Assembly (NCBI GenBank): GCA_965208905.1
Contig: OZ242365.1
Location: forward strand, 1,152,001 to 1,216,000
Source: Nitrosopumilaceae archaeon
Lineage (GTDB): Archaea; Thermoproteota; Nitrososphaeria; Nitrososphaerales; Nitrosopumilaceae
Reading direction: 5' to 3'
Length of the DNA: 64,000 nucleotides
Part shown: positions 9,672 to 63,425 of the stretch, piece after piece
Layout: every line of letters starts with the position of its first letter
How positions within the stretch are numbered: the first letter of the stretch is position 1
Notes under the pieces: model-generated
What the model was told of the DNA's origin: nothing
Database searches by the model: none
Seen by the model: the letters and a program-made list of their open reading frames with translations, nothing else
Translations under genes and position numbers: made by a program

Positions 9672-9769
9672 GCAGAGGTATCGAAGCCCGGTCAACCGAG
9701 AAGGACTCAAGATCATCATAAGAAATCCTTTCCTTTAGGGGTTCGTGGGTTCAAATCCCACCTTCTGCA
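9672..9769 (+). tRNA. tRNA-Leu(CAA) with ~13-nt intron at the 37/38 position (about 9712-9724)
   Basis: Acceptor GCAGAGG/CTTCTGC-A73, anticodon stem AAGGA/TCCTT interrupted after CTCAAG, long V-arm, GGTTCAAATCCC; TATA about 28 nt upstream. Confidence 0.9.
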
Positions 9770-9846
9770 CTACATCTTATTTGGTACGAATCAAATCATA
9801 GACTAAAAAATATAGATTCAATCTAACATATGATCATAATGTCATG

Positions 9847-58477: not shown

Positions 58478-58619
58478 GTAGTTAATATACTGTGGAATGT
58501 TCCACTTTGGCATTTATTGATGTATAAATCGATTATAAATTATTAAATTACAAGGCGTATCCTTAAAAAATACACCATTCGCAAGGTTTTTGAAACCGTA
58601 TTGTAACATGGTATGTAAT

Positions 58620-59846
58620 ATGCCTGATGAGATAATTGAGATGCGAGGCCATCTTATTGATTCAATGACATTGACTCGTGTAATGAACAAGATAATTGCT
58701 CGTGGCGGAAGCTATGAATTTTTACAGTTCGATGTGGGTCTCAAAGATACCGACACAAGCTACTTGAAACTTCAGGTAACTGCAGACACCACGACACTCT
58801 TGGATGAAATATTAGACGACATACATAGTGAAGGTGCAATTGAAGTATCGCCAAAGACTGTTATGATAAAACCCGCCCCCAAAGACATGACACTTCCCAT
58901 GGACTTTTACAGCACTACAAACAACGAGACTAGAGTATTCTACGATGACCACTGGATTACGGCACAGAGACAGATGATGGACAAATGTATAGTTGTTCAA
59001 GATAAGACTGCTGTATGCACAGCCATTCGTGATGTTCGTAAGGGTGATGGAATAGTTTGTGGTGAGAATGGGGTTCGTGTAGTTGTACCACACCGCCCTC
59101 GAAAGACATCTGATACATTTACGTTCATGAATAGTGGCAGCTCTAGCGAACGTCCTACTCTGAATATTGCTCGTCGGGTAGCTCAGGATATATACAATAC
59201 AAAAAAAAGTCATGGCCGTGTTATACTGGTGGGCGGACCGGCAATTGTACATACTGGAGGCTCGCCATCTGTAGCTGGCATGATTCGTAATGGATACATA
59301 AATGGGATTTTGGCAGGAAACGCCTTGGCCGTACATGATATAGAAAGCTCCATTTATGGCACTTCATTGGGTATGCGCATAAAGGATGCTACACCCGCCA
59401 GCAAAGGCCATAGAAACCATATGGATACTGTAAATGAAGTGTTCACATATGGCTCAATATATGATATGGTTGATGCTGGCAGATTAAACAAGGGAATATT
59501 TTATGAGTGTGTTAAACATGACACACCGTTTGTATTAGCCGGCTCCATACGTGATGATGGCCCGCTCCCTGACGTTGTAACTGATGTGGTTGAGGCCCAA
59601 AAAGAGTACAAAAAGATGTTGGATGGCGCTACACTAGTTCTGATGATATCCACAATGCTTCACTCTATTGCTGTTGGCAATATGCTTCCCTCTACGGTAA
59701 AGATAATTGCTGTTGACATAAATCAATCCACTGTAACAAAATTAATTGATCGTGGTACGTGGCAGGCTATGGGTATAGTTACAGATGTCGGGGCATTTTT
59801 ACCATTGGTGGTACAGGAGCTTGAGAATCAAGAGTCTACTGTGTAG
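58620..59846 (+). CDS. LOR/SDH-domain (TIGR00300-type) ornithine cyclodeaminase-like protein
   Basis: GHLIDS, DFYSTTN, SSERP, GPAIVHTG, GNALAVHDIE, AGSIRDDGPLP, MLHSIAVGN. Confidence 0.88.
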   Translation: MPDEIIEMRGHLIDSMTLTRVMNKIIARGGSYEFLQFDVGLKDTDTSYLKLQVTADTTTLLDEILDDIHSEGAIEVSPKTVMIKPAPKDMTLPMDFYSTTNNETRVFYDDHWITAQRQMMDKCIVVQDKTAVCTAIRDVRKGDGIVCGENGVRVVVPHRPRKTSDTFTFMNSGSSSERPTLNIARRVAQDIYNTKKSHGRVILVGGPAIVHTGGSPSVAGMIRNGYINGILAGNALAVHDIESSIYGTSLGMRIKDATPASKGHRNHMDTVNEVFTYGSIYDMVDAGRLNKGIFYECVKHDTPFVLAGSIRDDGPLPDVVTDVVEAQKEYKKMLDGATLVLMISTMLHSIAVGNMLPSTVKIIAVDINQSTVTKLIDRGTWQAMGIVTDVGAFLPLVVQELENQESTV

Positions 59847-59962
59847 AAAAAAAATGGGAATTATAGTGATGGGTAGGATCATTTAATAATCCCAAACGGT
59901 GTAGTATAGCAAATTCAGATCCAAGGAGGTGAACGGGTAAACAGGATGCAAAAAATGCGGTT

Positions 59963-60112
59963 TCATATGCAAGTGTGCGATTTAATCATCAACCGAGGTG
60001 TCATGAATGTAAAAGGGAATGAAACCAATAGAATACACGATAGACACAGCCCGTGTATTTGAGGACATGCAGAATCAAACAGATGACATCCACACAGCCC
60101 TACAAGTTTCAT
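59963..60112 (-). CDS. Possible 49-aa Cys-rich hydrophobic cargo peptide
   Basis: MKLVGLCGCHLFDSACPQIHGLCLSCILLVSFPFTFMTPRLMIKSHTCI, preceded by AAGGAAGGTGA 6 nt before ATG; could be a by-product of RNA structure. Confidence 0.3.
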   Translation of the reverse strand: MKLVGLCGCHLFDSACPQIHGLCLSCILLVSFPFTFMTPRLMIKSHTCI

Positions 60113-60199
60113 GACACCTCACCTTCCTTTATATTGTATATAGTGGTTTTGATCATTTAGATACCGTAGCATTATATGTCGCGTATCGTATTGTACAAT

Positions 60200-60273
60200 G
60201 CCATGCGGGTTTAGTAGAAACTTTCACTCGTAAATTCATTAACGATATCCGTATCATGGCCTCTGCGGGTATC
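60200..60273 (+). ncRNA. Cargo pseudoknot RNA, copy 1
   Basis: TTATA at 60172; 5' GCCATG pairs with loop CATGGC (60255-60260); stems CGGGT/ACTCG and GATATCCGTA/TGCGGGTATC; G-U pairs favour the + strand. Confidence 0.7.
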
Positions 60274-60276
60274 ATA

Positions 60277-60558
60277 TCATGTCTTATAACGCATGTCCAA
60301 AACTCGCACTATACTATGTGTTATGTGCAGCATGGTTATCTTGCGTGGAGGCCGTGACTCAAATAAGGCCCTCTCAGACTCTAAATCTTTGACTTTCTGC
60401 AACAATTCCTTCAAGTATGACATGGTTATATCGTCTGCCCGTAATTGATGTGTGTCTTTTGCCTTGTTGTATGTTGTCCCTCTGAATGATGTTACTGTTT
60501 CTATGTTGTCCCTGGGATATTCTGGCAAATTCTCTAGTATGTCCCGTTCCAATGTCAT
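60277..60558 (-). CDS. 93-aa hypothetical cargo protein
   Basis: TTTATAC about 25 nt upstream of ATG (leaderless archaeal promoter geometry); amphipathic helix YLKELLQKVKDLESE. Confidence 0.6.
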   Translation of the reverse strand: MTLERDILENLPEYPRDNIETVTSFRGTTYNKAKDTHQLRADDITMSYLKELLQKVKDLESERALFESRPPRKITMLHITHSIVRVLDMRYKT

Positions 60559-60628
60559 AATGCGAGTTGTATGACAGTCTGTATAAACTCTATCAATGTT
60601 TATAATACAACCACAAGGGCAATGATAT

Positions 60629-60696
60629 GTCGCACGGGTTCATTAATGCTCGTTAAATCGTTGCTGCCGTCCATATTGCGACCTCTGTGGACGGCA
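60629..60696 (+). ncRNA. Cargo pseudoknot RNA, copy 2
   Basis: TTATA at 60600; 5' GTCGCA pairs with loop TGCGAC (60677-60682); stems CGGGT/GCTCG and TGCCGTCCATA/TGTGGACGGCA. Confidence 0.7.
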
Positions 60697-60813
60697 AAAT
60701 CTAAGATATAGCATTACATTTTTGTGATAAAGTTGGTTTACTATGTATTAACTTTGTACAACTAAATGCAAGTAAACATAGAGTTATAACCATAATCTAA
60801 GTATATACAAACA

Positions 60814-60897
60814 ATGGTATAACAGTTCCATGTTACTGCTTCAGATACCATGAGCGGTAACTGTCGCTGCCCCTGTAGATTGTGAGCTAGGGGCAGC
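60814..60897 (+). ncRNA. Two-hairpin structured leader of the cargo tRNA
   Basis: Stems GTTACTGCT/AGCGGTAAC (60832-60861) and GCTGCCCCT/AGGGGCAGC (60866-60897); ATGGTAT (60814-60820) is complementary to loop ATACCAT (60845-60851). Confidence 0.55.
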
Positions 60898-60907
60898 ATC
60901 ATCCTTT

Positions 60908-60990
60908 GTCGTGGTGGTCTAGTCTGGTAGGGCGGCGGTCTCAAAAATCGCTCATTCACAATGGCGCAGGTTCAAATCCTGTCCACGGCG
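60908..60990 (+). tRNA. IS-borne class II tRNA with anticodon CAA on a tRNA-Ser-like body (G73)
   Basis: GTCGTGG/CCACGGC-G acceptor; D-arm GTCTAGTCTGGTAGGGC; GCGGT-CTCAAAA-ATCGC; V-arm CATT-CAC-AATG; GCAGG-TTCAAAT-CCTGT. Confidence 0.88.
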
Positions 60991-61000
60991 CACTAAACAT

Positions 61001-61933
61001 CTAACTTATCAGTTGCTCATATGTCAACCGCTTGCCAATCATGCCCCTTGCCAAACTTATCATCATGTCTTCAGTGTCTAGATTTCGTATGTTTAAACGG
61101 CCAGCAAACTCATTGACATACCTGTGCAGGTGCTTTGCCGACACATGATGGAATGTACCGTAATAGCCACGCTTTAACAAAGCCCAAAAGGATTCTATGC
61201 CGTTAGTGTGCGCCATGCCGTTGACATATTGACTTACCGAATGATTAACCACTTCGTGATTTGGTAAACTCTTGTATGCTCTATGCTCATCCGTATAATG
61301 GGTACTGCCCGACTTGACATTGTCTTTAATAAATTTGCCAAGTCGAGCAGATGTGGTCTCATTTACGGGTTCGGCTCTTATATCACCTGTCTTTCTATCT
61401 TTGATACCTACAACTGCGGTTTTGTTTGCACCGCCTTGACTGTGGGGTTGTTTCTTTGTACTGTGTTTGTTCTTTTCCTTGCCACCGATATAGGTCTCAT
61501 CTATTTCGACTGGACCTTCCAGTTTGTCAATACCTGCCAATGTTTGCCATGATTCACGCAAACGCTGAACCATGAACCATGCTGAACTTTGGGATATGCC
61601 TAAGTCTCTGTGTAGTTTCATTGATGATATACCCTTGACATTAGTCATAAACTGGTATGTTGCGATTGCCCAATGCTGGTATGATATTTTGGATTGTTGC
61701 ATTACAGTGCCGACTTTGACTGAAAAATACGTTTTGCACTTACTACAATAGTATGGCATCTTTGGATGTTTACATTCTATGGTATCATCATGTTTGCAGT
61801 TGGGACATTTACGGCCATCTCTCCATATGTGGCTTTCAAACCACTTCATGGATGTATGATTGTCTGGAAACATCTTTAGTAAATCTATTAGTGTGATTCC
61901 TTCCCTGTGTGATTTGCCTGGTGCTTGTTGCAT
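61001..61933 (-). CDS. IS1595-family (ISXO2-like) DDE transposase
   Basis: CPNC...YYCSKC Zn finger, GISSMKLHRDLG HTH, EIDETYIGG, TDE, HTNGIESFW; TTTATAT about 25 nt before the ATG at 61933. Confidence 0.95.
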   Translation of the reverse strand: MQQAPGKSHREGITLIDLLKMFPDNHTSMKWFESHIWRDGRKCPNCKHDDTIECKHPKMPYYCSKCKTYFSVKVGTVMQQSKISYQHWAIATYQFMTNVKGISSMKLHRDLGISQSSAWFMVQRLRESWQTLAGIDKLEGPVEIDETYIGGKEKNKHSTKKQPHSQGGANKTAVVGIKDRKTGDIRAEPVNETTSARLGKFIKDNVKSGSTHYTDEHRAYKSLPNHEVVNHSVSQYVNGMAHTNGIESFWALLKRGYYGTFHHVSAKHLHRYVNEFAGRLNIRNLDTEDMMISLARGMIGKRLTYEQLIS

Positions 61934-62033
61934 GTAATACCTTAGATTCATAGGGCATATAAATCCTACCCATCACTATAATTCCCAAAAAAATCCTCAA
62001 CACCAACGATATAATTTGAACATAGATGCAATT

Positions 62034-63425
62034 TTACTCTTTTAATAACTCTCCAAGTATGCGTAAAACCTCCTGTGGGTCGGCAGCACCACGAGTCTCT
62101 CTCATTATGATGCCTACTAAATAATTGATGGCCGGCGGATTTATACGAGCCTCATGCGCAGCCTGAGGCTCCTTCTGTAATGTGTCTGATATTATATCGT
62201 ATAATTTGGAGGTATCATAACTACTCGCGTCAAGTATGTCATCTATGTCTCCACCTTTTTTTGCTATTTTGTATAATACATCCTTGGCTACGGCCCTTGT
62301 AATTTTATTACTCTTTATCAACGTGGCAATCTTTGATAGATGCTCTGCAGTAATCTGTGAGGCGGCACGTTTCTCCCGAGTATCCATAACCCCCATAAAA
62401 TCAGTGGTTAGAATATTGGCTATTATTAAAGCCGTCTCCGGCGTTAGAGCCTCTTCGAATAAGCGACAACAACGTGTATCTGATATGAGCACATTGGCTA
62501 CCTGCGGTTTTATATTATACTGTTTGATGTATCGCTCCCGACGCGCTGTGGTACTCTCGGGCATATTGGCGGATATCTCTTTTATTGTATCATCATCTAA
62601 ATCCACCCAAGGAATATCTGCCTCTAAAAAGTACCTATAGTCAAGCTCTGCCTCCTTTGTACGAGACGATATTGTAATTCGACGGCGCTCGTCCCAATGC
62701 CGTGTCTCTTGTTGTATTGTAATGTTGTTCTCGTATAGACTGCTCTGTCGTGTTAGTTCATAATGTAGGGCTTTTTCCAGATCGTGGAATGAGTTGATGT
62801 TTTTAATCTCTACTTTGTTTCCGTCATGCACTGAAACATTTCCATCGGCGCGCATAGCACCATCCAGATACGGGTCTGCTATGTCTAGATTCTTTATGGT
62901 GTCTGCCAGCATATTCATAAAACTGCGTGCCTGTCGCGGACTGTCAAAGTCCGGCTCAGTTACAATCTCTACTAGTGGAACACCTGCCCTGTTGTAATCC
63001 ACAAGCGTTGTCTGGCGACCATCGTTGCCTCCTTCATATGTGAGCCTACCGGGATCCTCCTCCAACTGTATACGTCTGATGCGAATCTCTGTACCATCAT
63101 CTGTATTTACTGTGCCGTTACCGCCTATACTGGTGTGACCATATGCATCAAACTGTGTTATTTGATAGTTCTTTGGCAGGTCGGGATAAAAGTAGTTCTT
63201 GCGAAAGAAGGCCAGACTCTCTGGTGTAGTGCAGTTTAGTGACATGGCCAGAGCAACTCCATGTCGTACTGCCTCTGAGTTTAGCAAAGGCAGCGTACCG
63301 GGCAGTCCCAAACATATGGGACATGTATTGGAGTTTGGTGCCATACCTCTGTAGTTGGCCTTGCATGGACAGAACAACTTTGACTGTAATCGGGTCAACT
63401 GACAGTGTATCTCTAGTCCTATTAT
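62034..63425 (-). CDS. gatB: Asp/Glu-tRNA amidotransferase subunit B (probable ATA start)
   Basis: IGLEIHCQL, PGTLP, RKNYFYPDLPKNYQITQ, DYNRAGVPLVEIVTEPD; conserved N-terminus extends upstream of the TTG called in the ORF track. Confidence 0.95.
   Translation of the reverse strand: MIGLEIHCQLTRLQSKLFCPCKANYRGMAPNSNTCPICLGLPGTLPLLNSEAVRHGVALAMSLNCTTPESLAFFRKNYFYPDLPKNYQITQFDAYGHTSIGGNGTVNTDDGTEIRIRRIQLEEDPGRLTYEGGNDGRQTTLVDYNRAGVPLVEIVTEPDFDSPRQARSFMNMLADTIKNLDIADPYLDGAMRADGNVSVHDGNKVEIKNINSFHDLEKALHYELTRQSSLYENNITIQQETRHWDERRRITISSRTKEAELDYRYFLEADIPWVDLDDDTIKEISANMPESTTARRERYIKQYNIKPQVANVLISDTRCCRLFEEALTPETALIIANILTTDFMGVMDTREKRAASQITAEHLSKIATLIKSNKITRAVAKDVLYKIAKKGGDIDDILDASSYDTSKLYDIISDTLQKEPQAAHEARINPPAINYLVGIIMRETRGAADPQEVLRILGELLKE

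Follow-up and report, generated by a model that had tools for sequence, protein, structure and literature searches.

In a 64,000-nucleotide (nt) stretch of a Nitrosopumilaceae archaeon genome (assembly GCA_965208905.1, contig OZ242365.1, positions 1,152,001 to 1,216,000; hereafter the window), two short, divergent segments between positions 60200 and 60696 share an arrangement of complementary strands, which raises the question of what kind of element they represent. The source is a sponge-associated ammonia-oxidizing archaeon, and few structured RNAs are known from ammonia-oxidizing archaea. An initial annotation had read the two segments as copies of a new structured small RNA whose 5′ end pairs with a hairpin loop; the homologues, the covariation, and the lack of a match in Rfam described below support that proposal. 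The RNA family is real, new, and narrowly distributed, and most likely a stand-alone small RNA of the mobile gene pool. As to its full form, we favor, with some reserve, an RNA of ~70–130 nt that would be transcribed from the + strand under its own TATA promoter and would hold its 5′ end in a pseudoknot.

Reading of positions 59800-61100 places both copies on the + strand with one common layout: a 6-nt 5′ strand, a first hairpin (hairpin 1) closed by CGGGU and RCUCG around a loop of 15 nt in copy 1 and 8 nt in copy 2, an A/U-rich spacer, and a 3′ hairpin whose 10-nt loop reads in both copies as U, a 6-mer, and CUC. This 6-mer is exactly complementary to the 5′ strand (GCCAUG/CAUGGC in copy 1, GUCGCA/UGCGAC in copy 2), and the two pseudoknot 6-mers differ at 4 of 6 positions. 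The copies stand 429 nt apart and are ~50% identical outside this core. The layout thus agrees almost to the base with the one first described, including the complementarity of the 5′ and loop strands with four of six pairs changed. For the terminal stem, the pairing and its covariation hold, but its length is 10 base pairs (bp) and not the 6 first given, so that the spacer is 13 nt long instead of 17; in addition, copy 2 ends at 60695, one base earlier than reported. The joint sequence pattern matches the window twice; 100 shuffles average 0.02 matches, and none of them reaches two. Nested folding of the + strand recovers both hairpins (z = -1.6 for copy 1 and -2.9 for copy 2), and the minus-strand fold of copy 1 is at shuffle level (z = +0.08).

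To characterize the family, we used two covariance models: R1, built from the two window copies only and with the pseudoknot not encoded, and R2, built from four sequences. In keeping with the initial annotation, these models find further homologues: besides the duplicates in a second transposon copy described below, two in the window's own genome (G000), two in the sister species G001, and one in the sister species G006, all of the same genus. The family comprises seven distinct sequences at six independent loci. Copy 3 (G000 2111967-2112045; R1 expectation value (E) 1.7e-11) and copy 4 (G000 1726931-1727003; R1 E 7e-5) are diverged, and G001a is a full-length copy in G001 (31.7 bits with R2). 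A long form occurs in G001 (G001b) and G006 (G006b); its 3′ hairpin is matched by both R1 and R2, hairpin 1 carries an insert of ~80 nt, and the 5′ strand and TATA box were recognized by reading the sequence. The 5′ strand of the long form, GCCAUG, pairs with the loop strand CAUGGC; the corresponding strands are GCCACA/UGUGGC in copy 3 and G001a and GCCGUA/UACGGC in copy 4. The five full-length variants therefore contain four different 6-mers, each with its exact complement in the loop.

Pair counts over these five variants (105 cells) reveal strong covariation in all three helices, the pseudoknot helix included, as had been claimed. Pairs are formed in 97.1% of the cells versus 80.3% in shuffles, a contrast that the relatedness of the sequences inflates (0 of 500 shuffles reach the observed value), and partners slid out of register pair in 29–41%. 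The six pairs of the pseudoknot helix are 100% paired with both-side changes at 4 of 6, and this pairing emerges although the aligning model did not encode the helix. Both-side changes are found at 7 of the 10 pairs of the 3′ stem, and hairpin 1 has an invariant G.U pair and a usual closure of CGGG/CUCG. RNAalifold independently predicts the two nested helices. Across the variants the loop residues CCUCU are fixed, and the helices drift in sequence with their pairing kept; one stem position alternates between U.G, C.A, and C-G. The cells include 15 G.U pairs versus 3 nonpairs (2 C.A and 1 A.A); read from the opposite strand, the G.U pairs turn into mismatches, so that the structure is placed on the + strand. 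In every real copy, the pseudoknot is complete (6 of 6 pairs), and 9–10 stem pairs form. As a control, 97 unrelated pattern matches from public collections were examined: seven of them, which represent three distinct sequences, show pairing at each of the three variable pseudoknot positions, and none has at least 8 of the 10 stem pairs. In minimum free energy (MFE) folds of the long form (L008 1412-1500 and L007, in G001/G006), the 5′ strand can alternatively pair with CCAUGCAUGU immediately upstream of the 3′ hairpin, which hints at two mutually exclusive conformations.

A promoter-like box precedes every copy. The TTATA reported 28–29 nt before both window copies is indeed part of a TTATAT or TTATAA box starting at that distance, and all seven variants have a TATA-like hexamer whose first base lies between -31 and -26 from the 5′ strand. 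Such hexamers occur at 1.05% of random G000 positions and at 0.25% of those in the GC-rich G001 and G006 loci; the hexamer set was picked after the copies had been seen, so that this contrast is somewhat inflated. The usual archaeal TATA spacing would put the transcription start at the 5′ strand or directly beside it, in agreement with the initial annotation.

No known RNA family accounts for the motif, in line with the initial annotation. Rfam 15 returns three tRNAs only for the window at gathering score; with E relaxed up to 10, it places nothing on copy 1 or 2 (59900-61000) and nothing on the motif at the loci of copies 3, 4, G001a, and G001b. Among the papers listed by full-text literature searches, none deals with such an RNA in ammonia-oxidizing archaea, and the terms "non-coding," "IS1595," and "cargo" are absent from the running text of Krupovic et al. 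2019 (PMC6563490) on thaumarchaeal mobile elements, whose supplementary tables may list insertion sequences.

Both window copies are carried by a transposon with perfect 25-nt terminal inverted repeats (100% complementary), flanked by an A-rich 8-bp target duplication. A 2,144-bp stretch at G000 675262-677405 is 99.86% identical to it; the second transposon copy proper spans 675270-677402, differs by one base inside the element, and lies between different flanks with short target duplications. Ten runs are on record as RNA; four sponge metatranscriptome runs from one study were compared with 58500-62100, and contigs of two of these runs represent the empty site, joining 59847 to 61987 through 8 shared letters. 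Based on the second copy with other flanks and the empty site, the carrier is an active or recently active transposon, and the window RNA copies are its cargo. The DDE_Tnp_IS1595 transposase, the inverted repeats, the target duplication, and the evidence of transposition assign the carrier to the IS1595 family. The metatranscriptome contigs cover the upstream gene and the empty-site junction, with none inside the transposon; since the sampled population lacks the insertion at this site, they are uninformative on expression of the RNA. The features of the locus are collected in Table 1.

Table 1. Coordinates of the two RNA copies, their carrier transposon, and its other cargo in the window
Feature	Position	Strand	Details
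IS1595-family transposon	59855-61987		2133 bp; carries both RNA copies, the 93-aa gene, and tRNA-Leu
Target duplication	59847-59854 and 61988-61995		8 bp
Terminal inverted repeats	59855-59879 and 61963-61987		25 nt
TATA-like box of copy 1	60172-60177	+	TTATAT; starts 28 nt 5′ of the 5′ strand
RNA copy 1	60200-60273	+	from sequence, folding, and covariation
Copy 1, 5′ strand	60200-60205	+
Copy 1, hairpin 1	60206-60230	+
Copy 1, spacer	60231-60243	+	13 nt
Copy 1, 3′ stem	60244-60253 with 60264-60273	+	10 bp
Copy 1, loop of 3′ stem	60254-60263	+	U, 6-mer, CUC
Copy 1, loop 6-mer	60255-60260	+	complement of the 5′ strand
Orphan 93-aa protein gene	60277-60558	-	between the two RNA copies; from the list of open reading frames
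TATA-like box of 93-aa gene	60582-60587	-
TATA-like box of copy 2	60600-60605	+	TTATAA
RNA copy 2	60629-60695	+	from sequence, folding, and covariation
Copy 2, 5′ strand	60629-60634	+
Copy 2, hairpin 1	60635-60652	+
Copy 2, spacer	60653-60665	+
Copy 2, 3′ stem	60666-60675 with 60686-60695	+	10 bp
Copy 2, loop 6-mer	60677-60682	+
tRNA-Leu(CAA)	60908-60991	+	intron-less; ~210 nt 3′ of copy 2
IS1595/ISXO2-type DDE transposase	61001-61951	-	316 aa; PF12762 E 2.2e-40, PF12760 E 6.4e-4

Three of the four passengers of the transposon are RNA genes (the two RNA copies and the tRNA-Leu), and the fourth is an orphan protein gene of 93 amino acids (aa). The cargo tRNA-Leu(CAA) is widely different from the chromosomal tRNA-Leu(CAA) at 9672-9770, which has an intron, in its acceptor stem, D arm, and variable arm and, judged by its sequence, is probably foreign in origin. 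A blastn comparison of the cargo with phage and plasmid collections gave no match. At 59995-60120, a 13-bp perfect inverted repeat around ~100 nt forms a very stable fold (z = -4.9 on the + strand, -5.6 on the - strand); it is present in the two transposon copies only and, as modeled, may be another structured cargo element. A G+C-rich hairpin with a stem of ~11 bp (60866-60897, z = -2.6) lies 10 nt upstream of the cargo tRNA-Leu. Three diverged relatives of the IS1595-type transposase, 75–86% identical, are encoded at G000 1770072-1771027, 1045431-1046418, and 79503-79855, and an end-like 14-mer at 1043577 suggests that the second of these may carry ~1.8 kb of cargo.

The 93-aa gene is convergent with copy 1, its stop codon lying 3 nt past the last stem, and divergent from copy 2, with whose TATA-like box its own stands back to back. 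The protein has no Pfam family. Searches of two databases of 5.8 and 1.8 billion proteins yielded, besides itself, one match of 89% identity, one paralogue of 66–67% identity, and one weak match to a 500-aa protein (E 6.7e-07). The paralogue sits divergent beside copy 3, just as the 93-aa gene does beside copy 2, and the ratio of nonsynonymous to synonymous substitution rates (dN/dS) between the two is 0.19, which marks the 93-aa gene as protein-coding. It has no match in the nine other species of the genus. An AlphaFold model (predicted local distance difference test score, pLDDT, of 52) is too low in confidence to use, and a relationship to ISL3 transposases was set aside, the best ESM Atlas value of 0.84 (ISL3 fragments) being below lead level. 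RNAduplex comparison of the RNAs with the 5′ regions of this gene and of the paralogue gave results no better than shuffled RNAs. Within the gene, a 15-nt direct repeat (60467-60481 and 60499-60513, spaced 32 nt) is read in different frames in its two units, so that it is a repeat at the DNA or RNA level and not a protein repeat.

The other members lie mostly in variable regions. Four of five loci lie among transposase genes, and three of those four also among toxin–antitoxin-type genes; the RNA genes belong to the accessory, mobile part of the genome. Copy 4 (L141, G000 1719001-1735000) is near two adjacent fused nucleotidyltransferase–HEPN (NTP_transf_2/HEPN) genes and a PD-(D/E)XK nuclease gene, with an IS3-type integrase/transposase just downstream of the NTP_transf_2/HEPN pair. 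G001a stands among SocA_Panacea, TnpB-like, IS240, and IS66 genes; the TnpB/Cas12f-like gene (PF07282, E 3.3e-20; L020 5521-6882) is 1.6 kb away, and no link between the two was found. The long form adjoins tRNA-Lys(CUU), with a Fic gene (G001) or IS66 (G006) nearby, and the syntenic tRNA-Lys locus of G000 has no motif. Copy 3 lies between genes for a solute-binding and a secreted protein.

The range of the family is narrow. Real members occur in 3 of 10 species of one Nitrosopumilaceae genus, and none was found outside it among the genomes searched with the models, which comprised overlapping sets of 61 relatives, 151 genomes of the family, and 151 of the class. Several weaker matches were rejected. 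Among the 61 relatives, G016 and G017 gave weak R1 matches unconfirmed by R2. In four matches from genus g25 and in those from G086 and G170, the pseudoknot complement is missing and 2–4 stem pairs are broken or, in G170, the loop is 40 nt long; the G086 and G170 matches sit in apparently coding sequence. Within the genus, matches of G009 and G003 to a 16-mer loop pattern are coding-like and have no stem. Scans with a degenerate two-part pattern returned 49 stretches from metagenome contigs, none with both pseudoknot and stem; 48 from species-representative genome contigs, among which the known G001 contig alone passes; and one from viral contigs, which fails. A second pattern gave 6 stretches in viral contigs, all coding-like and with 7 of 10 stem pairs. 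These scans were strict in pattern and filter, and the absence holds for the collections searched. An architecture-only scan of G000 recovered no members beyond the six known loci. It also met a multicopy repeat (957375, 1041733, 1329361, 1779060, 1971783, 1974311, and 2155732) made of a hairpin and an upstream complement of its loop, which is probably the end of another insertion sequence.

We propose that transcription would begin at the 6-nt 5′ strand or a few bases from it and that the RNA would fold into a variable 5′ hairpin, a short spacer, and a 3′ hairpin of 9–10 bp. The loop of the 3′ hairpin (U, six variable bases, and CUC) would then capture the 5′-terminal six bases to form an H-type pseudoknot, which would tie the 5′ end into the body of the molecule. 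Such a lock may serve stability or recognition. Because the helices drift and CCUCU and the G.U pair stay fixed, a compact scaffold whose shape is recognized, probably by a protein, fits better than an antisense guide. Complements of the hairpin-1 loop and spacer are no commoner in the genome than those of shuffled queries; the variable loops, put forward earlier as a place to look for targets, thus have none above background. Our guess is that the RNA acts in trans for its mobile element or island, in the window possibly with the 93-aa protein.

Several observations weigh against a stand-alone, pseudoknotted small RNA. Transcription as a short independent species, like its ends and length, is deduced from sequence, and some copies may be the 5′ part of longer transcripts. 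There is no common terminator, a run of five T residues (60719-60723) following copy 2 only. The stability of the nested MFE folds is unremarkable (z = -1.6, -2.9, -1.7, -0.3, -0.7, -0.1, and +0.6), and the MFE fold of copy 3 lacks the consensus helices. With a 6-bp helix formed in the 10-nt loop, the connectors are 1 and 3 nt long and would be tight if the 10-bp stem were fully formed; the two top stem pairs, one of them U.G or C.A, may open when the pseudoknot forms. The family counts only seven sequences from three related species, and no mobile-element gene lies within 8 kb of copy 3. Furthermore, G001 and G006 have the RNA but not the 93-aa gene, so the protein is not an obligate partner.

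The main rival, which we consider unlikely, places the motif at the 5′ terminus of longer transcripts, where it would act as a structured cap to protect or regulate what lies downstream: copy 1 would head an antisense transcript across the 93-aa gene, copy 4 would be the leader of a 178-aa gene, and copy 2 would begin a tRNA-Leu precursor. It draws on the lack of an oligo-T terminator after five of the six loci and on same-strand genes after copy 4 (which is ~100 nt from the listed TTG start and ~45 nt from the first ATG), G001a (~390 nt), G001b (~670 nt), and copy 2 (tRNA-Leu, ~210 nt); moreover, 3 nt separate the end of copy 1 from the stop codon of the convergent 93-aa gene, and any read-through would be antisense to this gene. 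On the other hand, the downstream genes are mutually unrelated (a function-unknown gene, a secreted protein, ZnuA, and a tRNA), which speaks against a riboswitch-like leader; G001b has a second TATA-like box between the motif and the next gene, and copy 3 has no same-strand gene downstream. A self-cleaving ribozyme or exonuclease-blocking RNA of a mobile element, in which the pseudoknot would either set up the 5′ end for cleavage or protect it, would account for the held 5′ end, for the few loop residues and the one G.U pair strictly conserved amid drifting helices, and for the association with mobile elements. We nevertheless judge it very unlikely, as no Rfam ribozyme family matches even at E up to 10, the strand order differs from the nested double pseudoknot of hepatitis delta virus (HDV), with 1 nt separating the stem's 5′ half from the pseudoknot strand, and the promoter placement would start the RNA at the pseudoknot itself, leaving nothing upstream to cleave off.

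Complementarity would also be kept by inverted repeats acting in DNA, where a mobile element could use them as a binding site for a protein, a recombination site, or a single-strand origin, and all loci but one are in mobile or variable regions. Such a site would not be expected to show the strand asymmetry of 15 G.U cells versus 2 C.A and 1 A.A in duplex DNA, nor a TATA-like box at a fixed distance in 7 of 7 variants; a 6-mer complementary to a distant hairpin loop has no obvious role in duplex DNA, and the loci share no recombinase or Rep gene. This explanation is highly improbable in our view. Still less credence goes to a leaderless mRNA start for a tiny peptide whose codons would be the conserved bases. 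An AUG does stand at or beside the 5′ strand in copies 1 and 2 and the long form, and in-frame stops close short frames of 11 codons in copy 1 and 9 in copy 2; the other copies, however, have CUG or UUG at that place, neither the lengths nor the sequences of the peptides are conserved, the putative frame is broken in G006 by a 1-nt insertion relative to G001, and substitutions keep base pairs, not codons. The frame-breaking indel, the lack of a conserved peptide, and the pair-preserving substitutions led us to reject it. Beyond the preferred stand-alone small RNA lies a bolder extension, which we regard as doubtful: a new class of archaeal mobile-element RNA in which a promoter-proximal pseudoknot swallows the RNA's own 5′ end and confers an activity of its own (exonuclease resistance, self-processing, or service as RNA partner of the orphan 93-aa protein in an addiction, defense, or transposition-control module), and which would be spread by a DDE transposon that also carries a foreign tRNA.

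Covariation for three helices, including a pseudoknot, from few sequences makes the motif a clean candidate for a new Rfam family. Unusually, it is found in a DDE transposon that carries mainly RNA genes, among them a tRNA-Leu unlike the host's own. If the 5′-end lock does give stability or mark the RNA for a partner protein, it would be a new device in archaeal mobile-element biology; the narrow range, three species of one genus so far, limits its general importance.

How does the motif compare with known systems? It resembles the H-type pseudoknot riboswitches (preQ1-II, SAM-II, and fluoride) in that a strand pairs with a hairpin loop, with two stacked helices and few conserved unpaired loop residues. 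Unlike them, it has its own putative promoter at the 5′ strand and a variable hairpin in the first connecting loop, its pseudoknot partner is the extreme 5′ end and not the ribosome-binding region, and it lacks both an Rfam match and a conserved downstream gene family: what follows is a convergent orphan gene, the tRNA-Leu, a 178-aa protein of unknown function, a secreted protein of unknown function, or ZnuA. Type III antitoxin RNAs (ToxI-like) are likewise pseudoknotted small RNAs of mobile or defense regions beside a small protein gene. They consist of tandem short direct repeats that directly precede an endoribonuclease toxin gene in the same orientation, whereas the present copies form no tandem array but stand 429 nt apart, flank an opposite-strand 93-aa gene without a Pfam family, also occur without that neighbor, and match no Rfam entry. 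With the exonuclease-resistant RNAs (xrRNAs) of viruses, which stop 5′-3′ exonucleases in vitro through a ring-shaped fold about their 5′ end, the motif shares a 5′ end held in a pseudoknotted fold, here by sequence pairing; it differs in its archaeal host and in having no evident three-way junction or ring-closing second pseudoknot.

HDV-like ribozymes form a nested double pseudoknot in the order P1-P2-P3-P3′-P1′-P4-P2′, with hairpin P3 separating the 5′ half of P2 from the 3′ strand of P1; in our motif, a single nucleotide occupies the corresponding interval between the stem 5′ half and the pseudoknot strand, and Rfam gives no match. Box C/D RNAs are defined by C/C′ and D/D′ boxes, and H/ACA RNAs by an ACA box, a pseudouridylation pocket, and a kink-turn (K-turn); no Rfam small nucleolar RNA or sRNA family matched, and no such boxes were seen on reading the motif sequences. 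The bridge RNA of IS110 and the omega RNA of IS200/605 are likewise structured noncoding RNAs of insertion sequences, with loops that covary with another site. Here, by contrast, the carrier encodes a transposase of a different family, a DDE enzyme, the site that covaries with the loop is part of the same RNA, and the RNA is also found at loci without this transposon. The carrier itself is like other passenger-bearing IS1595-family insertion sequences in its transposase, inverted repeats, 8-bp duplication, near-identical copies, and empty site, and is set apart from them by a cargo that consists mostly of RNA genes.

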